Positions 1-22,952 of a stretch of DNA of 64,000 nucleotides are shown piece by piece. This DNA comes from an uncultured Candidatus Saccharibacteria bacterium (GTDB lineage: Bacteria > Patescibacteriota > UBA1384 > XYA2-FULL-43-10 > 1-14-0-10-43-13), in NCBI GenBank assembly GCA_964543385.1, contig CAZIYE010000001.1, forward strand, positions 422,755 to 486,754. Direction: 5' to 3'. Numbering within the stretch: position 1 is the stretch's first letter; each line of letters starts with the position of its first letter. The notes beneath the pieces are model-generated. The model did not search any database, was not told where the DNA came from, and saw nothing but the letters and a program-made list of their open reading frames with translations. Both the position numbers and the translations under genes were made by a program.

Positions 1-2
1 AG

Positions 3-281
3 TACGTCACCCCCGACGAACTCAAAGCCATGCTCAAATTCTCCGGTGAGATGGAGTTCACAACCTTCGTCTCAATCTTCCGCCTGGAGCTCATGGATGA
101 CGAGCACTGGCAGACGATTAGGGAGTACACTGGCGCGAATAAACGCCAGAACAAAGCACGAGACCGGCTGGATAGCCGGTCTCGTTTCTATTATGTATCA
201 ATTTTGTCATTGCGTCTGTCGCGGTTGTCATTCCAGCTTGTAAGCTTGAGAGCTGGAATCCAGGAGTTTGTTTACTTATAA
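3..281 (+). CDS. 3' fragment of a GC-rich ORF entering from upstream of the window (unknown product)
   Basis: Open frame from position 3 to the stop at 281 (ORF track 30..281 is its ATG-truncated tail). Local GC is clearly higher than the genome background. A perfect 10-bp hairpin at 159-184 lies inside it, so the true stop may be earlier. Confidence 0.25.
   Translation, partial: YVTPDELKAMLKFSGEMEFTTFVSIFRLELMDDEHWQTIREYTGANKRQNKARDRLDSRSRFYYVSILSLRLSRLSFQLVSLRAGIQEFVYL
159..192 (+). terminator. Rho-independent terminator candidate (CGAGACCGGC-tggata-GCCGGTCTCG followed by TTTCTATT)
   Basis: Perfect 10-bp inverted repeat followed by a T-rich tract, read directly. Confidence 0.55.
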
Positions 282-3519: not shown

Positions 3520-3686
3520 AGATTGATCTTACCAGATTATATATAAGCTTCCAAGATGATAAAAGTAGAAGACAGAATAAGATTGATTTAATTGAGAGAA
3601 AAGCTGCAATTTATTTGACTTTTATAACATTTTATTGTATATTATACATATCATCTCCCACATGGGAGTGCAAGGAGGTAGCTCCC

Positions 3687-4094
3687 ATGAGAGCTACGAC
3701 AATACTACTGGCCGCTTTAATCGCCCTTGTCACAATCTCCGGCTGCGGGATGGTAGAAGATCGCGTCAGGATCAACCCGACAGTCAAATCAGTGTCCATG
3801 GACTTCGGGAAGGAGGTGTTGCATATTAAGGTAGCTCCCTATGATTCCAACATCTACATACTGGGTACCGCCGTGGACTTACCGGACGGAACAACTAGCG
3901 CCGTCTCGCTCAACGTCAGCTATTGGAGCGGCTCCGCCCACCAATACAACTATGGCGATGCAGCATTCACCTTCTCGCCAGTGGATTTTAAAGCGGTATA
4001 CCGCTTTAAAATCCGAGTCGAGGGGCCCTCAATCGTCGCTGACGCTATTGAGGAAACATGGGAATATCAAGGGGGGCAGTGTATCAAGCTCTGA
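3687..4094 (+). CDS. Small secreted lipoprotein, GC-rich, unknown function
   Basis: AAGGAGGT RBS 8 nt upstream of ATG 3687. Signal peptide MRATTILLAALIALVTISGC with a lipobox Cys. GC about 50% versus about 37% background. The longer ORF-track start at 3615 lacks an RBS. Confidence 0.55.
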   Translation: MRATTILLAALIALVTISGCGMVEDRVRINPTVKSVSMDFGKEVLHIKVAPYDSNIYILGTAVDLPDGTTSAVSLNVSYWSGSAHQYNYGDAAFTFSPVDFKAVYRFKIRVEGPSIVADAIEETWEYQGGQCIKL

Positions 4095-4101
4095 ACGCCT
4101 T

Positions 4102-4140
4102 CGAGGCGGCCAACCGGCCGCCTCGATTGCATTTTATTGG
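4102..4140 (+). terminator. Intrinsic terminator hairpin (CGAGGCGGCC-aacc-GGCCGCCTCG) between convergent genes
   Basis: Perfect 10-bp GC stem with 4-nt loop, then a weak T-tract (ATTGCATTTTATT). Confidence 0.6.
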
Positions 4141-4153
4141 CTTTGTATCTTCT

Positions 4154-7100
4154 CTACCAAGACCAAGAGAATATAGTTATACTCCAACTCGTACCTAATC
4201 GTAGATTACCCTTTTGCGTATTAAAATAATCCGTTACCACACCAGTCAGAATATTGTCCCTGAAAAAACCCCAGACACCGTCAAGAATTGGCGAAAGAAT
4301 ATGATTGAGAAAATACTGGGTTCGATCACCTTTGCCCATCACCATAATATTCCAGAAATCATTAATAGTACTAATTTGGTTTTTGACCCAAGCCATTGCA
4401 TCATCTCCAACAGCGTTAACAAAGGCACCGAAACTAACAATTAGCTTAAAATTAACTTTAATCTCTTTATCACTAGTCAAATTTCTACATATCATTTTAC
4501 CTTCTTTTGTCGATTTTATATCTGTCGTTGGCCGCCCGCTGTCATCAAAATAACGTGGGGCTTCACAATCTGGCGCTGCCATGCTTTGAATTAGGAAGTT
4601 TCTGGATGCTTTTGCCACTATTTCCTTATTACTACCATAATCTAGCGTTACTACCCCGTTAGGATCAGTCGTTCCAAAAGGATTTCTCTTCGCAAGAGCT
4701 AATTGATTATTCTTATAGGTTTCGAGTCTGTCCGGTATAAAAGTTACCATTAGATTATTATAAAAATTATCGAGAGAACCAATCGCAGCCGCCGTATCAA
4801 TCTGAGCTGACGACAAAGTCAAACCGCGCGAGACAAGAGTCTGATTAAATTTTGGTATTATATCAAAATTAAATAACGAAGTAAGTTTATCTGTAATACT
4901 TGTGACTTTCCTCACAGTGCATTGAGGTGATCTTGGATTCTCTTGGCAAGCAATATTTACACACTGAGCCACCCCAACCTTGTCACCCAAAACTGCCTTA
5001 TTTATAATATCCGTATTTGAACATGGAGAAATACCAATAATTTGTCTGCTGACCAGCCCCCCTCTTCTGTCATTAATCGTAACTTCACGACTACCATTAG
5101 GCAAAACAGTCACAGTTGTGGTAGTACCATCTGAATTTGCGATAATTCTCATAGCTCCTGGTCGGTCCGGTACTGTATTGCCAAATAACCCAGCGCCAAG
5201 TCTTGTTAGGATGCTAGTCGCATTGCTCTCGAGTTCAGTAATCCCTTCAATTGTTTGCCTACCAAGCTTATAGGCGTTAGTAAGATTGACCTGGTCACGC
5301 CATAGCGACTTCACGTCGTTGATTTTAGAATCAACCCAGCCAAGAACACCCCCTCGTGTTTTTGCTTTGATTTGCTCAATTTGCGAAGCAGTATCGGCAT
5401 CCGTAATTACAGAATTAAGATCTTTCTGTACATTTAACCTGATTTGTTTGGGTCTGAAAGTCGCAGTAACTGTTTTATCAGAAGTGACGTTACTAACAGT
5501 ACATTGATAACCATCTGTCGATATATCCGTGCAACCGTTCCAAACAACTATGGAATTGTTTTCTGGCATAGTTGAAATGATTGCAGAATCGCCGTAATTC
5601 ACCACCTGAGTCAGCGGATTTACGCCATTTATAGAACCCAGATCAGTTCTTGAGACAGGATCATTCACTGAGCTCACAATCACCGTGAAGATCCTTTTGC
5701 GGACTTTGACTACGACATCATGATTTGCATCGATATTTGTAATACTGCAGGTTGATGCAGTAGGAGTGGTCGGCATACAGCCGGTCCAGCTAACGATTTC
5801 ACTACCTGCATCGATCAGTATCACCATAAAATTGACGTTACCGCCAGGGGCGATTTGCTGATTGGACGGGTTGATAGAAGCGCGGGCATTTGAAGCAGGA
5901 TCGATCATACCAGTGACTGTGTGCATCGTTGCAAAGGCAGCGTCAATTGTATGATCAGCAATAATAGATGTGAAAGCATAAGAGCCGGAACTGACAGCGG
6001 CATTATTAGTAGCACCGTCGATGCGAACATCCCTGATATTATATCCGAGAGCAGCAGTTACCAAATAAGATTGAGAATCACCATAATTTACCGTCTTTAC
6101 ACCAGCGGGTGTGATCAAGCCGTTTACTCCTGCTGTTGATTTGATAGTAAAAGTCTTGAGTTTAAAGGTGGCGATGACTGTCCTATTGGAGATGATATTG
6201 TCAAGTTTACAAAGGTCAGACTCAATACTATCGCAACCGGACCAATCAGTATTGGGATTAAATTCAACGGATGAAATAGCCGCAGTAGCTTTTATTAGTA
6301 AAATATCACCCATATTAACTACTGTGTAGGGAATTGTTTTGTCAAAAGTTCCGTCACCATTGCCTGCCTTATTGATACTAATAGTATATGTGTTAATAGC
6401 AAAACTAACATAAATACTATGATCGCCCGATATATTAGAGAATGTATAACTTGAAACTAAATCCACGGGATTTGCATCAACAACTAATGTTTCTATATGA
6501 TAATTAACTGCCGGAGTGAAGGTATAAGTTTTAGATTGTCCGTAGCTCACATAAGTTATGCCTGGTGATGAAATCGCCCCGTTAGAACCGAGAACTGCAT
6601 TAATCGAATATGTCCTAATAATAAAAGTAACTGCAATTGTGTGATTAGAATCAACATTGTCAAACCAGTAGGAGCTATCAGCAACAGCCGTAGGGTTGTT
6701 CACTCCGTCAACCAACACCTGATATATAAGATAACCATTATTAGGGGTAAATGTGTATAATTTAGAATAATCATATCCTACCATCGTAACACCTGGAGTC
6801 AAAATTGAACCGTTTTGACCTGCTGTAGCTGTAATAGCATAAGTATCGCGAGTATAGACTACCGAGACCGTGTGATTAGCGGAAATATCAGAGAAAGTAT
6901 AAAAGCCTGCAGCTATCGCTCCGCTATTTGATACTCCGTCCACTAAGACTTCACCTATATGATAGTGATTCTCCGACGTGAAAGTATAAGTCTTAGAGGA
7001 ATCCCAATTTACAACAGTAGCTCCTGGTGAAGTGATTGAGCCGTTCGAACCTGTTGTGGCAGTAATGGTGTAGGTATTAATGTCAAAAGTAGCCGAGATA

Positions 7101-8797
7101 GTGTGATTAGCAGTTACATTGGTAAAGTTATATGAACTTACAGCACCGACAGATGAACCGTTTACTCGAACATCAGAGATATGATAGCCGTCATTCGATG
7201 TGACGGTGTAAGATTGAGAACCATTTGTAGCTACACTGGTCGTTCCAGGAGGCGAGATTGTACCATTAGCGCCAGAAGAAGCTGTGATAGAATAATCACC
7301 CGCAGTAGTTACCACAAAGGGATAATTTGTCGTGCCTCCATTTGTAGTTATAATACAGGATCCAGCACCTATTGCTGCGCCAACTGGCACAGTAAGTATA
7401 ATAGACGTATTTGTCCATGTAGTAGGAGAACCTGCTACGGCTCCTATGGATATGGTTGAATTTCCTTGATTCAAGCCAAAATCAGTACCAGTAATCACGA
7501 CAATGTCACCAACATCTCCATTCGACGGATCTATTGATGTAATCGCGGGGACATTAGGCGTATTATAATGAACCGTCATAGCATCAAATATGGGAGTGAC
7601 TGTGGTATCTTCTGTAATAAGAATTATCTTTATCTGAGCATAACGTCCAGTTGGGACAATATGGTTTATGCCAATTACAAAAGTACTGGCTTGGTGGTTG
7701 GCATCTTCGCTCCACTCAGCAGCAGATAAACCGGCTTCAGTATCAGCTGCCCTTAGCCGGACTTCGAAATCAGTATTGGTGGGGACTGTCACAGTCCAGT
7801 CAGCATAATTCCAGTATGTACCGCTAAGACCTGAATCATAAGTAGTAATGGCAGTACCTACAGAAGAGAAAGCCGGGAAGGTGCCAGCTGTATTAACCCC
7901 ACTTAAGATATCATTATAAAGAGCAGAATTACCCGATACATCACTTGGATAGAAGCCCATGCCCCCCTGCATTACAGCAGCATTGATGGTGTGGTCAGAT
8001 ATAGAAGAAGCTGCTAATTGCAAAACAGCCGAAGTAATTGGCCCCGAAAGAATAGATGGATCTATAATGATAAAAGCTCTCTCGCCTTTTCCACCATAGT
8101 TTCCAATGTATCCAACCGTAGTCATCCCTCCTCGTGTCCCATCAGAGTAAACGTTGAATAAGTCAGACGTCACGCTTGGCAATGTAATTGTACCATTATC
8201 AGTAATAATCCTAATCGAACTATCGCGAGCCCCGTCAGTGCCAATCCAACTCTCCTCATCAGCATTTTCAGCCGAATCTTTAAAACCAATAATGACCAAC
8301 TCTTCATTTTCTTTAGCATAATTCATCCGCTGAATAAAGGCACAACTTAGAGTAATATCTTTAGAACCACCATCAGCGGTGAAATCAGCTGCTGCTAGTG
8401 AAGGCTCAGTAATATTTCCTACAGCGGTTGGACAACCACCATCAAGCTGAAAAAATCCCTGGGTTAATGGAGTGCCATTATCGACACCGCTTAGATCAAA
8501 ATTCGATAAATCAATAGTATCGTCCCAAGTTTTAGTCAGGGAGGCAGCCTTTAAATGCTGTTGCGGATTTGATATCAAGACAGCGGTAAATAATGAAAAA
8601 ACGACTAAACTGAAAAATAAAAACACCCAATGACTAGTCCTAGCAATTGGATTGATATGCCATCTATAATACCAGCGGAAATGCATCCTCAAAAAATTAT
8701 GCAGCTTTGATGCCCAAGGCATCAAAGCTTTAGTACTTCGCTGAATACGAATTAACTTTTTATCTAACTCTTGGATATTAATTTGAGATGATGTCAT
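4154..8797 (-). CDS. Giant surface protein: N-terminal TM anchor, IPT/TIG domain, at least 6 tandem Ig-like (InlB-B-repeat-like) domains, about 550-aa Cys-containing C-terminal domain
   Basis: 1547 aa. A single hydrophobic helix (WVFLFFSLVVFSLFTAVLI) near the N-terminus. IPT/TIG-like segment (PAITSIDPSNGDVGDIVVITGTDFG...). About 78-aa repeats with the pattern G.NG.I..PG......Y.....YTFT...GY.I..V.VDG.......Y.F.NV..NHTI...F repeated at least 6 times. Confidence 0.8.
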   Translation of the reverse strand: MTSSQINIQELDKKLIRIQRSTKALMPWASKLHNFLRMHFRWYYRWHINPIARTSHWVFLFFSLVVFSLFTAVLISNPQQHLKAASLTKTWDDTIDLSNFDLSGVDNGTPLTQGFFQLDGGCPTAVGNITEPSLAAADFTADGGSKDITLSCAFIQRMNYAKENEELVIIGFKDSAENADEESWIGTDGARDSSIRIITDNGTITLPSVTSDLFNVYSDGTRGGMTTVGYIGNYGGKGERAFIIIDPSILSGPITSAVLQLAASSISDHTINAAVMQGGMGFYPSDVSGNSALYNDILSGVNTAGTFPAFSSVGTAITTYDSGLSGTYWNYADWTVTVPTNTDFEVRLRAADTEAGLSAAEWSEDANHQASTFVIGINHIVPTGRYAQIKIILITEDTTVTPIFDAMTVHYNTPNVPAITSIDPSNGDVGDIVVITGTDFGLNQGNSTISIGAVAGSPTTWTNTSIILTVPVGAAIGAGSCIITTNGGTTNYPFVVTTAGDYSITASSGANGTISPPGTTSVATNGSQSYTVTSNDGYHISDVRVNGSSVGAVSSYNFTNVTANHTISATFDINTYTITATTGSNGSITSPGATVVNWDSSKTYTFTSENHYHIGEVLVDGVSNSGAIAAGFYTFSDISANHTVSVVYTRDTYAITATAGQNGSILTPGVTMVGYDYSKLYTFTPNNGYLIYQVLVDGVNNPTAVADSSYWFDNVDSNHTIAVTFIIRTYSINAVLGSNGAISSPGITYVSYGQSKTYTFTPAVNYHIETLVVDANPVDLVSSYTFSNISGDHSIYVSFAINTYTISINKAGNGDGTFDKTIPYTVVNMGDILLIKATAAISSVEFNPNTDWSGCDSIESDLCKLDNIISNRTVIATFKLKTFTIKSTAGVNGLITPAGVKTVNYGDSQSYLVTAALGYNIRDVRIDGATNNAAVSSGSYAFTSIIADHTIDAAFATMHTVTGMIDPASNARASINPSNQQIAPGGNVNFMVILIDAGSEIVSWTGCMPTTPTASTCSITNIDANHDVVVKVRKRIFTVIVSSVNDPVSRTDLGSINGVNPLTQVVNYGDSAIISTMPENNSIVVWNGCTDISTDGYQCTVSNVTSDKTVTATFRPKQIRLNVQKDLNSVITDADTASQIEQIKAKTRGGVLGWVDSKINDVKSLWRDQVNLTNAYKLGRQTIEGITELESNATSILTRLGAGLFGNTVPDRPGAMRIIANSDGTTTTVTVLPNGSREVTINDRRGGLVSRQIIGISPCSNTDIINKAVLGDKVGVAQCVNIACQENPRSPQCTVRKVTSITDKLTSLFNFDIIPKFNQTLVSRGLTLSSAQIDTAAAIGSLDNFYNNLMVTFIPDRLETYKNNQLALAKRNPFGTTDPNGVVTLDYGSNKEIVAKASRNFLIQSMAAPDCEAPRYFDDSGRPTTDIKSTKEGKMICRNLTSDKEIKVNFKLIVSFGAFVNAVGDDAMAWVKNQISTINDFWNIMVMGKGDRTQYFLNHILSPILDGVWGFFRDNILTGVVTDYFNTQKGNLRLGTSWSITIFSWSW
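5900..7200 (-). repeat. Degenerate tandem coding repeats (about 234-bp unit) encoding the Ig-like repeat array of the giant protein
   Basis: Periodicity seen at protein level (ISPPG/ITSPG/ILTPG/ISSPG ... NHTI..TF). Boundaries approximate. Confidence 0.55.
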
Positions 8798-8808
8798 ATT
8801 TTTCCAAA

Positions 8809-9528
8809 CTAAATTGGATTAATAATAAAACTCCAAAAACCCCTTCCTTTGGTTTCTTGTTCTATTTTGGTCTGACCCCGTAAAGAATCATAGATATAAG
8901 ATATGAATATTAATAACATCGGGAAGATAACAACCATAAACATTCCCATAAATAATTTACCAAATATCATTGAGACAATAGAGACAATCAGAAGAGAAAG
9001 AAACACCGTCCAAAATGCTCCCTTACCAATCTTGCGACTGTTTTTTATCGCCTCAATCGCTTTATCACCATCTGCCACTGCGAAGATATAAAATGCATAA
9101 TGTATTCCCCAGACGATTCCAATTAGGTCAAAAATAACAGTCGCAAAAGGAATAATGAATTTCAGAAGATTACCGACAATCGGTCCCGCTGCCAGAAGTG
9201 CGGAGACCGCTAATGAAGCCATTATGAGGTTCCACATGTTTTTCTTCAATGAATATATTTCTTTCAGACTTGTTTTCTTACTCCTGACAACATCCAATGA
9301 TATCCTGAGACAAACGAGCAGTGCAATAGAATTAATAATTGCAACAGAGATATATATAATAAATTGATATAAAAGACCAACATAGGTTGCACTGGCAATA
9401 ATTTCGTAAATCATAATGTTGAAGATAGCGGCCAAAGACACAACCATCAAAAATATCGGCCATATCTTCCACACAAACCGTAATGAAAAGATAAAGGCAT
9501 TTTTTATAGAAACCTTCTTCTCGGACAT
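8809..9528 (-). CDS. Polytopic membrane protein (about 6 TM), unknown; probably co-transcribed upstream of the giant surface protein
   Basis: 239 aa, multiple hydrophobic helices, 11-bp gap to the next gene on the same strand. Confidence 0.55.
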   Translation of the reverse strand: MSEKKVSIKNAFIFSLRFVWKIWPIFLMVVSLAAIFNIMIYEIIASATYVGLLYQFIIYISVAIINSIALLVCLRISLDVVRSKKTSLKEIYSLKKNMWNLIMASLAVSALLAAGPIVGNLLKFIIPFATVIFDLIGIVWGIHYAFYIFAVADGDKAIEAIKNSRKIGKGAFWTVFLSLLIVSIVSMIFGKLFMGMFMVVIFPMLLIFISYIYDSLRGQTKIEQETKGRGFWSFIINPI

Positions 9529-14492: not shown

Positions 14493-14895
14493 TAAAATAC
14501 ACGCTTTTTAATAAATTAATCAACTATAAAATAGATAATCTGCAAATGAGCAAGTATTTTAAAATAAGATTCCTGCAATAAATGTCTTACTTAAAATAAG
14601 TATTACAGCTCTGTGACAAGACGCTATCTCAAACCGCTCATGATTCCAGGCTTAATCAGAAATCTTTGGCGAGTTGCGATCACCTGCCAGTAGCAGAAAA
14701 CCCCTAGTAATAGAAACTATAAATCCCCTCCGATCCCCGTAATCACTCAGGGTATCGAGGCATATTTATTATCTGTCTAATAAATATTTTTGTCAATTAG
14801 TTGATAGGTCCGCATATATAATGTCAAGGTCCCGGCAGATAAATCTACCGGGACCGTGATCTCCCACTCCTTCCTAAACTGTAGTTTGCACTCTC

Positions 14896-15846
14896 CTATC
14901 TGGAGAGCTCATGATCGATTTCCGATAACCGTGCTTTCATATCAGTTTCGTCCTGATCGACAAAGGCAACCTTCTGTTTTGCCGCTTCCCACTCAACTTT
15001 CTTGCGATCAGTCTCTGCTTGAGCAGTACTTCGACGCTTCGGCACTTCGCCCAACCGACGATTGAGATCTTCCCGCTCCTTTTTGAGACGGACAAGCATG
15101 TCAGCAGCGGCAAGTTCCCAGAAATGCAACGATGGCATAAAGCCGTCTTCGTTCTCGGGGTACAAGACTCCGTTGCGAATGAGAATATGCAGGAGATACT
15201 TGAAGTCGGGAACCGTCAATTCCTGATGAAGCGCCGACTTAAGCGCAGCCTTGATCGACTCCAACCGGTATGGACCCTCTCCGCTATCCGATAGGTAACT
15301 GCACACTTGGCTCATCACGGCGAATTTGGTGATTTGCTCCCCGAGACGCTCCCTAACAAGCTGACGCTGTTCGAACCGTTGAACATCGCGGTGCTTACGC
15401 TTCCTACTGAGTGCAGCGATTTCTTCCTCGAGCTGACGATCAGACTCTTTTACATACCTCTCACAAGTTGCCACATAGTTTGGCTTCACGATCGCCAGGA
15501 ATCCACACGCTCCGGCATAAGAATCAAAGACCATGCAGACTGACCATTGCTGGTCAGACCCTTGTGGACGAACCCGCAGCTCGACGTAATCACTTCCATC
15601 GAACTTGAACCCGAAGAGCGCACTCACACCATGCATTTCGCCTATTGTCCTGATGGGCTTTACGTAGAGGATCGCCTTTTTACAAGCAATCTCGTTGTAA
15701 CCCAGGACATCAGCGAGCCAACGATCGATCTCATCAACTAGACCTTGGATGTCGATCTGATGGTCCCACTTGTCGTCGAGGATCAATTCGATCTGTCGTG
15801 ACCGATTCTCTTGCTGTGATAACCCCAGCCATTTTGCAATGTTCAT
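14896..15846 (-). CDS. GC-rich hypothetical protein (about 316 aa), charged coiled-coil-like C-terminal region
   Basis: GC about 52% against about 37% background. ATG at 15846 preceded by AGGGGAAG RBS; the ORF-track GTG at 15885 is less likely. No recognisable domain. Confidence 0.6.
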   Translation of the reverse strand: MNIAKWLGLSQQENRSRQIELILDDKWDHQIDIQGLVDEIDRWLADVLGYNEIACKKAILYVKPIRTIGEMHGVSALFGFKFDGSDYVELRVRPQGSDQQWSVCMVFDSYAGACGFLAIVKPNYVATCERYVKESDRQLEEEIAALSRKRKHRDVQRFEQRQLVRERLGEQITKFAVMSQVCSYLSDSGEGPYRLESIKAALKSALHQELTVPDFKYLLHILIRNGVLYPENEDGFMPSLHFWELAAADMLVRLKKEREDLNRRLGEVPKRRSTAQAETDRKKVEWEAAKQKVAFVDQDETDMKARLSEIDHELSR

Positions 15847-15940
15847 TGCTACTTCCCCTTGTGTAACAAAAATCACTGCTTGCACTATTGCAAAGCAGTT
15901 GCATAATACTATACTATTTTTAGATCAATTTGTAAATGAC

Positions 15941-17902
15941 TTAGATGATGTCCAACAGACACTCCGGTATGTTTTCAATAAATCGTGATTTTGGATTACA
16001 CTGAAACCGACCGTAGATATTTCTCTCTGTCGCATAAATCATATATAAACGCTCTTTTGCCCTAGTAATACCGACATAACAAAGTCTTCGCTCTTCTTCC
16101 ATCTCAGAGACGTCCATTAAAGCTCGTGAGTGAGGAAATATTCCTTCCTCAACACCGACAATAAATACGGTCTGAAATTCCAAGCCTTTGGCCGAATGCA
16201 TGGTCATCAATGTAACGACACCGTCCTCATGATTTATCTGATCAGTATCAGAAACCAAAGCTACCTGCTCGAGAAATATATCCAAAACTGTCCTATCTTC
16301 TAGATCATCACTTGGAGCTGCTTCATAGTTTGCCTGTATCTGCTCTGCCACAGTAATTAGCTCAAGGACATTCTCCCACCTTCCTTCCCCTTCAGGTGTG
16401 CCGTCAAGAAGAGATTCTTTAAAACCAGTTTTTACCGCTATTTTTGAGATTAATTGATCTAAGGAAGTAACAAGTGACAGATTATAAAGCTCAGAAATAA
16501 TTTTGAAGAACTCAACAATCTTAGCAGGAAATTCTTTAGACATTTTATCCATTATTTTGTTATCTAAGGGACTTGTATCCTCAGTGTTTTGAGAAAAAAA
16601 TTCCCTTATCTTTTCGACTGTTTTGTCTCCAATACCGCGCGATGGAGCAGCAACCAATCTGGCAAAAGCCTCCATGTCCTTCGGATTGGCTAGAAAACGT
16701 AGATAAGCGATCATATCCTTGATCTCTTTGCGCTCATAGAAACGGACGCCGCCGACAACCTTATATGGGATCTTAAATCTTAGGAATGCTTCTTCTATAG
16801 CTCGAGATTGCGCGTTCGTCCTATACAAAACAGCGAAACTATTATAATCAGCGCCTCTATTATGCAGCGACCTTACCTCCATAGCCACAAATTCGGCCTC
16901 ATCTTTTTCATTTAAGGCCTCATAAATTGTAATCGGCGTCCCTTCGGAGTTTTCTGTCCAAAGCTTTTTATCTGTTTTATTTTCGTTAAACTTAATAACA
17001 TCATTTGCAGCAGCAAGAATTGTTTTTGTTGACCGATAATTTTGTTCAAGCTTTATTACTTTTGAGTCTTTATAATCCTTCTCGAAATTTAAGATGTTAC
17101 GAAAATTTGCACCTCTCCACGAGTAAATTGATTGATAATCATCGCCGACCACCATAATGTTTCGATGCTTTGAAGCCAGCAATTTAGTCCAGAGATACTG
17201 AGCTTGATTTGTATCCTGATACTCATCAATTAAAATGTATTTAAATAAATTCTGATATTTCTCTAAAACTGATGGATTGTTTTGGAATAAAAATACACAC
17301 TGCATTATCAAATCATCAAAGTCCATTGCATTAGCCTCTTTGAGATACCGCTCATACCGCTCAAAAACTTGTGAGGTCACTTTTTCGAAAGGAGAATTTA
17401 TATATTTCTTATATCCTGTGGCATCAATCAACTCATTCTTCGCCCCCGAAATAAAATAAGAGATCGATTTTGGATTGAAATTCTTTGGATCAATATTTAG
17501 TTCTTTCATTATCCTTTTAATAATAGAAAGCTGATCGTTGTCATCATAAATAGTAAAGCTCTTTGAATAACCCACATAGTCGGCCTCACGACGCAAAATC
17601 CTGACACAAATTGAATGAAATGTCCCAAGCCAAGGCAAGCGATAATTTAGTTCATCCCCGGCCCTCTCACCGACAATAAGCTTAGCGACTCTCTTCTCCA
17701 TTTCTTTGGCAGCCTTGTTCGTAAAAGTCACTGCCAAAATATGATAAGGCGAAACCTTTTTTTCTTTAATAAGATAGGCAATCCTATGAGTCAAAGCCTT
17801 TGTCTTGCCGCTACCAGCTCCGGCCAAAACAAGCAGGGGGCCCTCAGTCGTCATTACAGCATCAAGCTGTGGCTCATTTAGATTTTGTAATAATTCATTC
17901 AC
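15941..17902 (-). CDS. uvrD: ATP-dependent DNA helicase UvrD/PcrA (SF1)
   Basis: Walker A AGAGSGKT, motifs Ia-VI in order (TFTNKAA, DEYQDTN, GDDYQSIY, TMHSAKGLEF, VGITRA); 653 aa; host-like AT-rich composition. Confidence 0.9.
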   Translation of the reverse strand: MNELLQNLNEPQLDAVMTTEGPLLVLAGAGSGKTKALTHRIAYLIKEKKVSPYHILAVTFTNKAAKEMEKRVAKLIVGERAGDELNYRLPWLGTFHSICVRILRREADYVGYSKSFTIYDDNDQLSIIKRIMKELNIDPKNFNPKSISYFISGAKNELIDATGYKKYINSPFEKVTSQVFERYERYLKEANAMDFDDLIMQCVFLFQNNPSVLEKYQNLFKYILIDEYQDTNQAQYLWTKLLASKHRNIMVVGDDYQSIYSWRGANFRNILNFEKDYKDSKVIKLEQNYRSTKTILAAANDVIKFNENKTDKKLWTENSEGTPITIYEALNEKDEAEFVAMEVRSLHNRGADYNSFAVLYRTNAQSRAIEEAFLRFKIPYKVVGGVRFYERKEIKDMIAYLRFLANPKDMEAFARLVAAPSRGIGDKTVEKIREFFSQNTEDTSPLDNKIMDKMSKEFPAKIVEFFKIISELYNLSLVTSLDQLISKIAVKTGFKESLLDGTPEGEGRWENVLELITVAEQIQANYEAAPSDDLEDRTVLDIFLEQVALVSDTDQINHEDGVVTLMTMHSAKGLEFQTVFIVGVEEGIFPHSRALMDVSEMEEERRLCYVGITRAKERLYMIYATERNIYGRFQCNPKSRFIENIPECLLDII

Positions 17903-17919
17903 CTGCTTAACCCTTACTG

Positions 17920-17934
17920 CTTAATTCTTAATTC
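17920..17934. repeat. (CTTAATT)2 copy of the recurrent GAATTAAG motif, 18 bp upstream of the uvrD start
   Basis: Same 15-16-mer as at 25950-25977 and 62150-62200. Confidence 0.5.
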
Positions 17935-17977
17935 TGTTCGATTATATCGAATATACGAACAAATTCCAAACAAAACA

Positions 17978-18721
17978 TTGTTTCATATTCAACTAAATTA
18001 TTATTTGCGTTATATTAATTTAATGAGCAAAGTTTTAGTCAGTGTTACAACTTTAGAAAATCCCAAATGGGCAAAACAAGTAGAGGATCTGGCAAGATTC
18101 AATATAGATGAATTTGCAATTTTTATTTCTTGTTTAAATCCAACCGAACGTCAAGACCTTTATACTAAGCTTGAGAAGCTTAAATCCATCAAAGTTCCTT
18201 TCGCACATATTAGAACAGACGTAAATGATTCAGAACTGGAATATCTGGTTAAACGATTTGGCCTAGAACTTTGTAATATACATCCGAGTTCGGAGTTTGC
18301 CCTGCAATATGAGTGGAAAAAATATCGGAAAATTATACTGATAGAAAATGTTATACATTCAATAATTGATGAAGAAGAATTAAAAACCTTCGGTGGAATA
18401 TGCTTGGATACTGCTCATTTAGAAAACCATCGATTATCAGATATGCCCAAGTACGAATATACTGTAAAACTAATTCAAAAATATTCAGTCAAGGCTAACC
18501 ATATTAGTGGAATTTTGCATATTCCGGCTCACATAGACACCGGACATCCCGAAAGACTTTGTTATGACAATCACGATGTACACTCAATTACTGAATTTAA
18601 CTATCTAAAAAATTTTCCGAAAGATTACTTTGGCAAATATTTATCAATTGAAGTTGGAAATGATATTGAGGCTCAATTAAAGATAAAAGAATATATCAAG
18701 AAAGTTCTAAATATTAAGTAA
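17978..18721 (+). CDS. Hypothetical protein, possibly xylose-isomerase-like TIM-barrel (sugar-phosphate isomerase/epimerase or AP-endonuclease-2 fold)
   Basis: GGICLDTAHL resembles the ...CLDTCH/LDTAH metal-site motif of the xylose isomerase-like TIM-barrel family. Weak support. Confidence 0.4.
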   Translation: MFHIQLNYYLRYINLMSKVLVSVTTLENPKWAKQVEDLARFNIDEFAIFISCLNPTERQDLYTKLEKLKSIKVPFAHIRTDVNDSELEYLVKRFGLELCNIHPSSEFALQYEWKKYRKIILIENVIHSIIDEEELKTFGGICLDTAHLENHRLSDMPKYEYTVKLIQKYSVKANHISGILHIPAHIDTGHPERLCYDNHDVHSITEFNYLKNFPKDYFGKYLSIEVGNDIEAQLKIKEYIKKVLNIK

Positions 18722-18806
18722 AAGATCCAGTAAAAACAAAAAGAGCAAACCGCTCAAGCATCACCTCCTTACAGAGGTTCACTCTCTTCGCGATCCGCTC
18801 TCGGAT

Positions 18807-20063
18807 CTATTTTGTCATTGGCTGCTGCATAATGCTGGCATAGGGCAGGAAATCACCAACCCACCGCTCAATCGGTGTCGCGTCGAAGATGGTCCTCCCG
18901 AGAAGGGCGTTGCCAACGCTGGCAATCGCTTCCTCCATCATCCGAATGGAATGAACAGCGGCTTCGCCGATCTGTTTTTTGGTGCGGTAATGCGGAACGA
19001 GGTGTGCCTGCCAGGCATCATCATGATCGGCTTTTGCCTGCTCGATTGCATCGTAGATACCATAAACACGGAAGATCGCACGTTGGATCTCCTTGTTTGC
19101 CGGAATCATGTATACACGCCCATCGGGAGCTGTGTAGGCGAGCATGATCCTATTCTCATCGGGATTACAGGCGAAGTCGGTGAAGATCGGGAAACCGTTA
19201 ACGACCATACCCTCAGTTTTCCCGTCGATGCTCATGAGGCCCAGCGCCTTGCAGTAATCGCGCTGGTGACGAGCATTCTCTGCCACCGTTTTCCGCCAAG
19301 CCATAAAAGCCAGCGGATCAAGGTGCATCATCAGCCGCGCCTCATCTTCTGTCATAGTAGCATCACCTGCCGGCCGAAACTTCGTGTCGAAATTGATAGC
19401 CGGTTCGGCAATCATGTGGCCCGGATTGGGGATACAATCAAGACCGGCCGCCGCGAGTACCCGCACCATCGCCGGATCTTGCATGATCCCGGGGATAGCC
19501 CGAATCTCATCAAGCCCGACAATCGTATCGGCATAAGTAGCGATCTTCTCATACCGTTCTACCATGTTGGCCGCGCCAAAGATCTTCTTGAAGGTTGAGC
19601 TCCCGAGCGGGAACCCCCAACGATGAATACATTCTGCGTCAGCGACGAACACGTTGATATCGCCCGAGTTGATCAGTCGGTGATAAATCGCTCGCGTTTC
19701 GTCCGTTATCTTATCGCCGAAGACATGGGGGGTTACCCCCAGCTTCATAACAATGATATCGGAGAGTTCTCCGCGGTCCATCAACGTCTCCACATCCGTG
19801 ATCTTACCATCCTTGTCGAGCATACCGGCATAGGTATGTTGGAAACCGGCTGCAGAGGCCTGCTCCCAATACCGTGCCGACGTCATCGCCAAAATATAGT
19901 TCTTGTCACGGATCTCGATTGGGGGTATTAGCTCCTTGAGATCGCCGACCGAAAAGCGGCCGGATACCTGCCAGGCGCCAAGCCCCAACGAATTGAACCC
20001 CGGCTTTCGAAATAACCGGCCTCCAGGGCTGTCACCCTGAATTTGATCTTTCACTGAACCCAT
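18807..20063 (-). CDS. GC-rich hypothetical protein (about 418 aa), unknown function
   Basis: GC about 52-55%. Long antisense ORFs on the + strand are typical of high-GC coding DNA. ATG at 20063 (MGSVKDQ...) preceded by a GAGGAAG RBS. No confident family assignment; only a faint resemblance to SAICAR-synthase-like folds (FDTKF). Confidence 0.6.
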   Translation of the reverse strand: MGSVKDQIQGDSPGGRLFRKPGFNSLGLGAWQVSGRFSVGDLKELIPPIEIRDKNYILAMTSARYWEQASAAGFQHTYAGMLDKDGKITDVETLMDRGELSDIIVMKLGVTPHVFGDKITDETRAIYHRLINSGDINVFVADAECIHRWGFPLGSSTFKKIFGAANMVERYEKIATYADTIVGLDEIRAIPGIMQDPAMVRVLAAAGLDCIPNPGHMIAEPAINFDTKFRPAGDATMTEDEARLMMHLDPLAFMAWRKTVAENARHQRDYCKALGLMSIDGKTEGMVVNGFPIFTDFACNPDENRIMLAYTAPDGRVYMIPANKEIQRAIFRVYGIYDAIEQAKADHDDAWQAHLVPHYRTKKQIGEAAVHSIRMMEEAIASVGNALLGRTIFDATPIERWVGDFLPYASIMQQPMTK

Positions 20064-20255
20064 AATCACTTCCTCTCTCTTTTTCAAGAGATAGTCCATG
20101 CATCCATGCAAAAATATCTGACAGAGATCCTACTCGGCCACCAGTTGGAAAAGTACCTCCTCTAGATTGTATTAGATAACCAAACAAGGCACACACTATG
20201 TGCCCTGTTTCCAACTAATGTATACCAAATCAGACAATAAATTTCAATTTTGACA

Positions 20256-20296
20256 ACTAAAAAATCCCATCTGATTTCTCATTTGGGATTTTTTAG
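20256..20296. terminator. Bidirectional intrinsic terminator (AAAATCCCA-14 nt-TGGGATTTT flanked by A and T runs)
   Basis: 9-bp perfect stem, A-run upstream and T-run downstream; sits about 150 nt upstream of the start of the 18807-20063 gene. Confidence 0.6.
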
Positions 20297-20916
20297 TTCG
20301 GGCAGAAGTGATTTACGGACTAATTGGAAATTAGTTTTTTAATAATATTCCAGCCGCGTCAACTTATGCCCTCCATAAGAGGCTTTGATATTGTGTCTCC
20401 GCCAAAAGATTTGTGATCCCTTGATAGAAACTATCTTGTCCTCTTAAATTTCTTGTTTGTGTCATGAACTTGGCGGGTCAAATTTCAATTCAAACCCGGT
20501 CAGACACTTTTTTATTTTCGAGTAATCCCTTTGAAGGATATATATCTTCCAAAAGAATATTACTTCATCTTGCTAATTTCTTAGCAAGAATGAGCTGGGG
20601 AGGAGTTCTTTCACCGATTCACTTTTGAAGTGACTTTGTAAAAGATTCGATAACCATTAATTTTCTAGATTATTTCCTCCTCTCAAGAGTAAGGTAGGGG
20701 TGGACCTTTCTCTTGTCCCATCTCATTCTAGCTAAAGAAAAAGACATTCCGGAAGGAATGCCAATTTTGCGATTCCCTCCAAGCACTTATTTGATTGTTA
20801 ATGTACTACTAAATTAAACCATTGTATCAATTAGAACACATCTTGTCAATAGTATGCTTGCAAATTTACACACCTATAAATAAATATTTAATATAGGACT
20901 TAGTAATTTTTAAAAA

Positions 20917-21932: not shown

Positions 21933-22952
21933 TTAATCTTCCCCTGCCAATTGACCACAAGCTGCACTTATTTCATCTCCTAGGCTTGCTCTTATTGTTG
22001 TCGGTACTCCATTTCTTTCCAATATACCCCTAAACCGTTCAACTTTTTGACGACTACTTGATTGAAAATCAGTATCACCGATTGCATTAAAGTTTATTAG
22101 GTTCACAAAGGCCAATCTGTTCTTGAGCACATCAGCAAGCGCCTGCGCATCTTTCTCGCTGTCGTTAAAATTTTCCAGCATTACATATTCGTAACTTACT
22201 CTTTTGTTGGTTCTCTCAACATACCGATCCAAAACAGCAAAAAGTTTTTCTAGTGGATTAGTTTTAGCAATTGGCATCAACTTTTCTCTAAGTTTTTGAT
22301 TTGGCGCATGGAGGCTAATAGCTAAGGTGACACCCAGATCAGCATCGGTAAATTTAGAGAGCTGAGCAACTATTCCACACGTTGAGACCGTTATATGTCG
22401 TCGTCCAAGATTAAAATAACTCGGATCGTTTAGTTCTTTAATCGCCCCAATTAAATTATCAAAGTTTAATAGTGGTTCGCCCATTCCCATAAATACAACG
22501 TTAGTCAACTTTTTATCTCTCGATTTTAATTGTCGGGCAGCGAATAAAACCTGTGAAATAATTTCCCAAAGGCTTAGATTGCGCTTGAAGCCAAGCTGGC
22601 CAGTAGCGCAAAAAAGACAGCCAGAAGGACAACCAACTTGTGAAGAAACGCAGACCGTGCTGCGCCCGTCTCGAAATTCCATCAACACCGTCTCAATTTT
22701 GGCACCATCCTCCAGCTGGAAAAGCCACTTCGTTGATCCATCCTTTGACTTTTGTTCAGCAATTAATTGAAATGGCACTATGCTTGTCGCTGCGGCCATC
22801 TTCTCACGCTCTTCTTTGCCAATCGTTGTGATATCAGATGGACTATCAACCAAATTTACCCAGACAGCATGACGAATCTGTTTTTGTCTTAACGAGGTCT
22901 GATTTTTTAGATAATCATAAAATTCCATATTATTCCTACTCCTGAGATCCAC
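21933..22952 (-). CDS. rlmN: Radical-SAM 23S rRNA (A2503-C2)/tRNA (A37-C2) methyltransferase
   Basis: CVSSQVGCPSGCLFCATG (CxxxCxxC), MGMGEPLLN and the C-terminal Cys; 339 aa. Confidence 0.9.
   Translation of the reverse strand: MDLRSRNNMEFYDYLKNQTSLRQKQIRHAVWVNLVDSPSDITTIGKEEREKMAAATSIVPFQLIAEQKSKDGSTKWLFQLEDGAKIETVLMEFRDGRSTVCVSSQVGCPSGCLFCATGQLGFKRNLSLWEIISQVLFAARQLKSRDKKLTNVVFMGMGEPLLNFDNLIGAIKELNDPSYFNLGRRHITVSTCGIVAQLSKFTDADLGVTLAISLHAPNQKLREKLMPIAKTNPLEKLFAVLDRYVERTNKRVSYEYVMLENFNDSEKDAQALADVLKNRLAFVNLINFNAIGDTDFQSSSRQKVERFRGILERNGVPTTIRASLGDEISAACGQLAGED

Follow-up and report, generated by a model that had tools for sequence, protein, structure and literature searches.

A long, divergent PurC-like gene and an orphan winged-helix-like gene among GC-rich inserts around uvrD in a Berkelbacteria-like genome

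GC-rich genes on either side of uvrD

We analyzed a 64-kb stretch of DNA (64,000 nucleotides of contig CAZIYE010000001.1, hereafter the window), in which the helicase gene uvrD lies between two protein-coding genes with an unusually high guanine and cytosine (GC) content, here called gene A and gene B (Table 1). The window as a whole has a GC content of 38.2%, and 300-bp blocks reach a GC of 0.50 at four places only (positions 1-350, 3651-4250, 14801-15900 and 18701-20200), all of them inside its first 21 kb. Across its approximately 60 open reading frames (ORFs), the GC content at third codon positions (GC3) has a median of 0.33 with a robust standard deviation of 0.04. Four ORFs depart from this distribution: gene A (GC 0.50, GC3 0.55, z = 5.4), gene B (GC 0.54, GC3 0.62, z = 7.1), an ORF at 3615-4094 (GC3 0.58, z = 6.1) and an ORF at 30-281 (GC3 0.62, z = 7.0); the remaining ORFs have z ≤ 2.2. 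The sliding-window and per-ORF profiles place the edges of the anomaly at the edges of genes, and the compositional break described in a first-pass annotation of this DNA is borne out. So are the long antisense ORFs reported inside both genes, of 215 amino acids (aa) in gene B and 91 aa in gene A, which are expected of GC-rich DNA. The third-position preferences of the two smaller GC-rich ORFs differ from those of gene B, which weakly disfavors a single donor for all of the GC-rich genes.

The uvrD gene had been described as native; Pfam confirms its identity, and its composition is native. Its closest relatives are 76-77% identical, with named matches from Candidatus Berkelbacteria or Patescibacteria, and the closest bacterial homologues of gene B come from metagenome-assembled genomes (MAGs) of Berkelbacteria. 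From these relatives, the genome looks like that of a candidate phyla radiation (CPR) bacterium resembling Berkelbacteria. Nothing identifies the organism as a known actinobacterial episymbiont, a lifestyle that the first-pass annotation had raised as a condition. The 247-aa gene between uvrD and gene B has orthologues adjoining uvrD in two relatives, L037 and L038, with 36-37% identity (L-numbers denote loci or contigs compared with the window). Its former label as a TIM-barrel gene could not be verified, as it has no sequence match in Pfam, NCBIfam or the PDB.

Two sister genomes, represented by L037 and the P0127 contig, provide the syntenic frame. Their gene order is DnaX-DnaB-171aa-133aa-[slot]-conserved 235-aa gene(-)-UvrD-G5-KsgA-Nramp-TP_methylase-CysS-EamA-TatD, and both gene A and gene B are missing from it in two of two sisters; a third relative, L038, carries a gene B homologue in the same slot. 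All four GC-rich ORFs of the window are positioned at synteny breaks with respect to the sisters, and the first 21 kb of the window is a plasticity zone.

One explanation for such a pattern is artefactual, namely that GC-rich fragments were joined to the contig by chimeric assembly or contamination. Chimeras can occur in MAG-type data, and Logan contigs of this genome break within one of the GC-rich ORFs. However, at least three assemblies, each from a separate sequencing run, contain contigs that match the junctions with 100% identity, so the GC pattern is not an assembly chimera; the contig break is accounted for by a perfect 32-bp palindrome; and the same pattern is present in 10 other genomes that come from different projects and assemblers. 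We therefore consider an artefact extremely improbable.

Table 1. Features of the first 21 kb of the window, with positions counted from its first nucleotide.
Feature	Position	Strand	Basis and remarks
C-terminal 93 codons of a GC-rich (0.52) 354-aa membrane-anchored protein	1..281	+	contig L104 runs past the window start
135-aa lipoprotein, GC 0.50	3687..4094	+	signal peptide and ISGC lipobox
Gene A cassette	14800..15940		1.1-kb insertion relative to sisters; blastn and alignment against L037
Terminator-like hairpin	14829..14857	-	about 38 nt past the gene A stop; as RNA, 12-bp stem and 4-nt loop, no U-tract
Gene A, 316 aa	14896..15846	-	ORF and AlphaFold model; alternative GTG start at 15885 gives 329 aa
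Promoter-like site TTTACA-17-TATAGT	15908..15936	-	10/12 consensus matches; consensus scan of the uvrD-gene A spacer; such sites are regionally not above chance
uvrD/pcrA helicase	15941..17902	-	Pfam E = 9e-95; native composition; synteny anchor
Conserved hypothetical gene, 247 aa	17978..18721	+	paired with uvrD in all relatives
Gene B insert, variable slot	18722..20254		from the 3′ end of the conserved 247-aa gene to the terminator of the conserved non-coding element
Gene B, 418-aa divergent SAICAR-synthetase (PurC)-like enzyme	18807..20063	-	fold, motifs and homologue context
Conserved structured non-coding element	20255..20640, possibly to ~20812	-	upstream boundary of the gene B insert, next to a 134-aa gene

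Gene B as a probable long form of PurC

Gene B begins at an ATG with a Shine-Dalgarno-like AGGAAG 7 nt upstream, and belongs to a family of 120 homologues of about 410-430 aa, several of which are annotated or Pfam-tagged (PF01259) as SAICAR (succinylaminoimidazolecarboxamide ribonucleotide) synthetase. An AlphaFold model built from a 32-sequence alignment has a predicted local distance difference test score (pLDDT) of 95. When the model was compared with the PDB using Foldseek, the matches ranked 1-38 were all PurC or PAICS chains, with E-values down to 1.6e-8 and target-normalised template modelling scores (TM-scores) of about 0.57-0.74 for stand-alone PurC chains and lower values for bifunctional PAICS. 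The sequence identity to these solved PurC structures is only 10-14%. The first-pass annotation had found no recognisable domains in gene B, which its PurC fold and family now correct.

The residues that are invariant across the family fall at R148, G150, G154, K228, D234, D280, G281, K282, E284, D296, D302, E303, N304 and R305. In profile alignments to solved PurC chains, D280-G-K282-x-E284 aligns on the PurC motif D-F-K-x-E, and D296...D302-E-N-R305 aligns on the motif D-E..P-D-x-x-R; in the hidden Markov model (HMM) alignment, iDGKlE is placed on vDFKlEFG and ltDfactvDENR on laDE-isPDtcR of 2YZL, 3NUA, 1A48 and 2GQR. The gene B family has counterparts of the conserved PurC motifs D-x-K-x-E, D...P-D-x-x-R and the R...G-S loop. 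We take the aligned residues to have the nucleotide, Mg and CAIR-type roles of their PurC counterparts, where CAIR is carboxyaminoimidazole ribonucleotide.

The comparison with canonical PurC (PF01259, TIGR00081; 2GQS from E. coli, 1A48/2CNQ from yeast, 2YZL from M. jannaschii) yields shared and distinguishing characteristics. The fold is the same, the layout of the D-x-K-x-E and D...D-x-x-R motifs is common to both, and the operon partners of canonical PurC, purE, purB and purH, also lie beside gene B homologues. In contrast, canonical PurC is about 237-306 aa long while gene B has 418 aa, approximately 110-180 residues more, and the AlphaFold model shows additional inserted segments and a long helical C-terminal region. 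The copy in the window also differs in standing alone. This long form is seen only in DPANN archaea and Berkelbacteria, and shorter relatives of it are found in Aenigmatarchaeota and in a few Hyphomicrobiales. Neither the long form nor its GC pattern was described in the literature that we searched.

In purine synthesis, PurC combines CAIR, aspartate and ATP into SAICAR. Gene contexts were covered for about 11 of the approximately 34 closest gene B homologues, and they repeatedly place the gene among the neighboring steps of this pathway. The order is purB-purE-[B]-purH in L006, purB-purE-[B] in L105 and L010, and purE-[B] in L009 and L042, while [B] directly adjoins purB in L041, L038 and many DPANN loci. 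In L038 the order [B]-purB-[conserved gene]-uvrD occupies the same slot as gene B in the window. Like [B], its pur partners in L006 and L038 have diverged strongly enough to score under the NCBIfam cutoffs. Two relatives illustrate how the module changes: L004 and L105 share an adh-GDH-...-PurC-Nramp locus (L004 8543-12714 and L105 1257-7648), in which purB-purE upstream of the long PurC is present in L105 and has been lost from L004. This loss shows how a lone PurC, as in the window, can arise.

From the fold, the motifs and the gene context of its homologues, we conclude that gene B probably carries out the PurC step of a divergent late-purine module, an activity predicted from sequence and from a structural model. 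Several observations weigh against this assignment. The sole sequence-family matches of gene B are to PurC, and all are far under their curated cutoffs: the Pfam PurC score (PF01259) is 13.0 bits against a cutoff of 20, TIGR00081 scores 19.8 against 189.9 bits, and NF010564 scores 30.2 against 459 bits. In addition, tblastn found no purB, purE or purH within the 64-kb window, which covers part of a genome of roughly 671 kb. Gene B could instead be a PurC-fold paralogue that acts on another substrate, for example as an ATP-dependent aspartate or amino-acid ligase, and that, standing alone here, has no role in purine synthesis. The low identity to solved PurC structures, the sub-threshold family scores and the extra residues beyond canonical PurC would all suit such a paralogue, as would the isolation of this gene in the window, L004, L005 and L008 and the presence of a related short form within an accessory plasmid cluster in Mesorhizobium. 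Yet the nucleotide, Mg and CAIR-type motifs are retained, homologues from two domains of life are tightly linked to purB, purE and purH, exactly at the PurC position, and no canonical purC was seen in those operons. With this evidence on both sides, we judge a paralogue with a different substrate to be unlikely.

If gene B is indeed the PurC step, a gene carried as 'hypothetical' in CPR and DPANN genomes becomes annotatable as the long-form PurC of a divergent purB/E/C/H module, and the annotation changes metabolic reconstructions of organisms that are usually said to lack purine synthesis. What is new is a variant of the known PurC family together with its unusual compositional behavior.

The short relatives in Hyphomicrobiales (about 286-340 aa; L107, L033, L034 and L036) include a copy on a mobilizable plasmid of Mesorhizobium sp. 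L-2-11 (L107; NZ_AP023260.1, 142443-143303). It adjoins a second purH, a beta-ribofuranosylaminobenzene-5′-phosphate-synthase-like gene and a phosphoribosylanthranilate isomerase gene, a cluster that may form an accessory nucleotide-type pathway.

Origin and GC excess of gene B

We built a neighbour-joining tree from 40 gene B homologues. The Berkelbacteria copies form one clade (bootstrap 99/100) that is nested among DPANN-archaeal copies, and this nesting indicates a single inter-domain transfer, probably in the direction from an archaeon to a bacterium. Gene exchange between CPR bacteria and DPANN archaea is reported in literature cited by PMC12455944, and the nested bacterial clade fits it; the purine module and its compositional behavior were absent from the literature that we searched.

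The two sides of this tree differ sharply in composition. The offset of the gene from its flanks in GC is +0.153 ± 0.026 for bacterial-clade copies (n = 11 loci) and +0.021 ± 0.022 for DPANN-type loci (n = 35), with no overlap between the two distributions (Mann-Whitney p = 4e-7). Compared with the host, gene B is higher by some 15 points of GC overall and by about 0.3 at third positions (GC3), and G3 and C3 are both raised. Bacterial copies share a GC3 of 0.59-0.83, and their gene GC follows the GC of the host or flanks with a slope of 0.87 (r = 0.64). The best non-self match of gene B, 60% identical, resides in a low-GC host. The property extends to the module, since purB, purE and purH are equally GC-rich wherever they are present in these bacteria.

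The age of this excess can be read from synonymous sites. Between bacterial copies, four-fold sites at identical residues are saturated, with a mean excess identity of 0.02 over the composition-based expectation (50 pairs), so that the shared high GC3 cannot be the memory of one ancestral donor. The L004/L105 pair provides a comparison at a shared locus: their PurC proteins are 77% identical while the flanking genes are 72-78% identical, the synonymous divergence of PurC falls within the range of the flanks, and PurC GC3 is 0.80-0.83 in both genomes compared to about 0.5 in the flanks. Among the pairs that include the window, the window/L038 pair has the highest residual synonymous similarity.

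These characteristics can be set against those of known systems. Like genomic islands, genes A and B have atypical GC and GC3 bounded by the gene, lie at synteny breakpoints and are absent from the closest sisters. Unlike such islands, they are GC-richer than the host instead of AT-richer, they come singly and lack an integrase, a tRNA target and direct repeats, and the deviation of gene B does not decay but is the same in all orthologues despite synonymous saturation. Under the Lawrence and Ochman model, horizontally acquired atypical islands are said to ameliorate towards the composition of the host. A GC3 rise of about +0.3 that is limited to a single functional module, and in so small a genome, is, to our knowledge, not the typical pattern of GC-biased gene conversion. 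There is nevertheless a likeness to GC-biased gene conversion or selection for GC in bacteria (Lassalle et al. 2015, PMC4450053), in that GC3 of gene B is above the host's mutational expectation and both G- and C-ending codons are raised. Two other causes were tried and rejected. Simple translational selection is unlikely, because the GC of ribosomal-protein genes next to the L005 homologue is normal and because both G3 and C3 rise; amino-acid composition does not fit, because GC3 is the most shifted codon position.

We propose that Berkelbacteria would have gained a purB/purE/purC/purH module, otherwise mainly of DPANN archaea, in a single event with an archaeon as the probable source. Descent since then would have been mostly vertical, accompanied by rearrangements and many losses. 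Its GC excess would be actively maintained, either by selection that acts on composition or on expression or by GC-biased repair tied to recombination. We hold this reading as a whole, with gene B as the PurC step and gene A as a separate insert, to be somewhat likelier than not; in it, the excess of gene B is old and maintained across the bacterial clade, not a residue of recent transfer. A stronger form of this proposal, that a gene-specific, non-mutational force holds the pur module of Berkelbacteria at a compositional equilibrium of its own, through synonymous saturation and in genomes under 1 Mb, is plausible but somewhat short of an even chance.

Some points count against this proposal. 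The case for vertical descent is made by a single co-diverging syntenic pair (L004/L105) together with a single shared locus (window/L038); gene B is missing from both of the closest sisters, so that loss events are needed; the tree is a neighbour-joining gene tree only; and the force behind the GC excess has several candidates. An unsampled GC-rich reservoir is also possible, with the contexts covered at about 11 of about 34 closest homologues. On this last account, the pur module would be native to an unsampled lineage or mobile pool of 55-62% GC and would have been transferred repeatedly into low-GC Berkelbacteria. Each copy does look at equilibrium for a genome of 54-62% GC, the genomic contexts vary between genomes, the presence of the gene is patchy among close relatives, and in L006 genes for a relaxase, a coupling protein and a serine recombinase are found about 2 kb from the module. 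But none of the 11 contexts examined is GC-rich, and the PurC genes of L004 and L105 have diverged as much as their flanks at the same locus, which together favor maintenance in situ. Recurrent import is further opposed by the slot that the window and L038 share along with their residual synonymous similarity, by the co-variation of gene GC with host GC, and by the searches of mobile elements: there was no viral match (no IMG/VR relative, and nothing by tblastn against phages), and the sole plasmid matches by tblastn were the distant short PurC-like genes of Mesorhizobium and Aminobacter. We hold repeated import to be an improbable source of the excess, of about the same standing as the paralogue considered above.

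The first-pass annotation had proposed a different history, in which genes A and B are recent imports whose high-GC donor may have been an actinobacterial host, and in which the two could act as the parts of one accessory function in defence or host interaction. Its appeal lies in the sharp, gene-bounded GC jumps, in the absence of both genes from the syntenic frame of two sister genomes, in the foreign-looking GC-rich genes of related genomes (such as a DUF1559/N_methyl gene in L009), and in the codon-position profile of gene B (GC1/GC2/GC3 of 0.58/0.40/0.62), which resembles that of a genome of about 54% GC if judged by general genome-wide trends. As for the donor, searches of 5.8 billion and of 1.84 billion proteins returned no Actinomycetota or other high-GC homologue of either gene. 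As for the timing, the same +0.15 offset is found in 11 of 11 Berkelbacteria-clade orthologues of gene B, with saturated synonymous sites and one co-diverging syntenic pair; the GC excess of gene B is lineage-wide, the very pattern that the annotation itself had named as pointing away from a recent import. For gene A, horizontal acquisition remains the best reading, with a donor of about 50% GC. As for the partnership, homologues of the two genes never co-occur: a tblastn search with gene A over more than 100 loci, about 90 of them gene B homologue loci, located it in its own genome and in L039 and L040 alone, at no point next to a homologue of gene B. A defence role finds no support either, as PADLOC returned 0 matches for A, B and their neighbors, PHROGs returned none for the proteins of the window, phage and plasmid searches gave no relevant match, and gene A homologues have no conserved neighbors. 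Finally, there is no integrase, tRNA target or target-site duplication. We regard this combined history as very unlikely, and propose instead that genes A and B would be independent single-gene cassettes, not one system.

If gene B has kept its excess in this way, then GC-based island calling would misdate it, and the pur module would be a concrete counter-example to the reading of GC deviation as recent transfer. Among bacteria, a maintained module would also offer an exceptionally clear natural example of GC heterogeneity kept up within a genome. Selection and biased gene conversion above the mutational GC equilibrium could be told apart here, with the DPANN copies, which lack the offset, as a built-in control.

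Some observations on related loci bear on mobility and on composition in this group. The purB-purE-PurC-purH island of L006 (1-5586) has genes for a relaxase, a TrwB-like coupling protein and a serine recombinase some 2 kb away, a hint that a conjugative element may be close by. Strongly GC-rich single genes are found in other Berkelbacteria loci as well (L009 17231-18697, L005 19649-21016 and L041 3168-4538); they include a DUF1559/N-methyl pilin-like gene in L009, of a family that we take to be typical of Planctomycetota, a B12-binding radical S-adenosylmethionine (SAM) enzyme with a GC of 0.66, and unannotated ORFs. Outlier genes of high GC thus recur in these genomes.

Gene A, insert boundaries and other flexible genes

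Gene A encodes an orphan protein. A word-indexed protein search returned only the gene itself, and an exhaustive HMMER search found ten relatives of 296-319 aa, with 23-29% identity over nearly their full length and no family annotation; the best non-self match is 28-30% identical. There is no Pfam, NCBIfam, PHROG or PADLOC family for gene A and no useful PDB sequence match; tblastn against phages and plasmids returned nothing, and a fold search of BFVD returned nothing significant. In its AlphaFold model (pLDDT 81.5), residues 18-120 form an N-terminal alpha/beta domain, 122-172 a helical hairpin, 175-238 a winged-helix-like unit and 240-315 a C-terminal helix. Foldseek matched the model to winged-helix domains of MarR, Cdc6, RosR and Rok, though these matches are partial and sub-significant (E ≥ 0.015, query-normalised TM-score of about 0.2). 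The predicted three-helix and beta-hairpin unit at 175-238, followed by a 75-residue helix, would be shared with winged-helix proteins that dimerise through a coiled coil (MarR-like, Cdc6/Orc); unlike winged-helix DNA-binding proteins, gene A has no significant sequence or whole-fold match. We suggest only tentatively that gene A might be a coiled-coil-dimerised DNA-binding protein; since the fold matches behind it are partial and below significance, this role is doubtful. Gene A adds a small protein family that combines a winged-helix-like domain with a coiled coil.

In two homologue contexts, the GC content of the gene A relative is near-native (0.50 compared to 0.47 in L039, 0.58 compared to 0.55 in L040), and the contexts in L039 and L040 share no neighboring genes with each other or with the window. 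The family is sparse and was seen as native in genomes of 47-55% GC. A conserved neighbor was sought and rejected, as the 712-aa genes that lie beside two homologues are unrelated to each other. In the window, the stop codon of uvrD flanks the gene A cassette on one side and the conserved promoter region (TTGACA) of the G5-domain gene on the other; L037 and the P0127 contig carry no gene at this site. The cassette was most likely acquired horizontally, and we propose that gene A would have been inserted, as a gene plus its terminator, between uvrD and the next operon.

The proposed terminator is a hairpin that had already been noticed (GTCCCGG-N12-CCGGGAC at 14830-14856) and is indeed present. 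As RNA, a 101-nt region containing it folds with a free energy of -37.8 kcal/mol (z = -4.8). A terminator scan did not call it, where the scan's DNA-level stem requires a loop of 3-8 nt. It had been offered as an insertion scar or operator; at the edge of the cassette, it is best read as the cassette's terminator. The near-palindrome described over the 5′ end of the gene dissolves into a trivial repeat with 5-bp arms at the 3′ end, gene A being on the minus strand. Target-site duplications at the island edges, which the first-pass annotation had suggested as a check, and terminal repeats were looked for, and only chance-level repeats surround either insert. There is no tRNA within 15 kb, and neither cassette adjoins an integrase or other mobility gene.

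The gene B insert ends at a non-coding element, where DNA conservation with L037 also ends (window position 20255). This element is 85% identical to L037 over 192 nt, compared to 72% for uvrD DNA, and its fold has a z of -7.6, with a terminator hairpin at its end that carries compensatory changes in L037. It contains no ORF and matches no Rfam family. Upstream of it, at 20849-20821, lies a near-consensus promoter, TTGACA-17-TACAAT with a TG. From these sequence characteristics, the element is likely an unclassified non-coding RNA (ncRNA).

The slot downstream of this ncRNA-like element holds different genes in different relatives: a gene B homologue plus purB in L038, and an unrelated GC-rich 133-aa ORF in L037. 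The latter (L037 5410-5811) encodes a membrane-anchored coiled-coil protein with a GC of 0.52 compared to 0.43, and the second sister has a 132-aa gene there. A remnant of gene B was looked for in the L037 slot, and none was found. The slot appears to be a hot spot for GC-rich cargo.

The two smaller GC-rich ORFs of the window lie in flexible regions of their own. The lipoprotein ORF is part of an approximately 6-kb insertion between TP_methylase and cysS that is absent in both sisters. The same insertion carries a 1547-aa TIG-domain surface protein and a 239-aa protein (4154-9528), and because both of these have native GC, not all flexible genes are GC-rich. Inside the lipoprotein ORF, at 3983-4014, is the perfect 32-bp palindrome already mentioned, with arms GGATTTTAAAGCGGTA and TACCGCTTTAAAATCC. 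It is the longest in the window, the next being 20 bp, and shuffled sequences reach a maximum of 14-18 bp; it explains why the Logan contigs of this genome all break at about 3985-4012.

A 339-aa radical-SAM gene of near-native GC (21933-22952), between dnaB and a 169-aa gene, is absent in both sisters. Beyond the left edge of the window, L104 (3732-6171) continues the partial ORF found at the window start as a 354-aa protein and carries, just past the window edge, a gene for a GC-rich (0.57) 386-aa protein with a weak resemblance to Amidase_3; at the site of this GC-rich pair, L037 has PhdYeFM antitoxin and aminotransferase genes.

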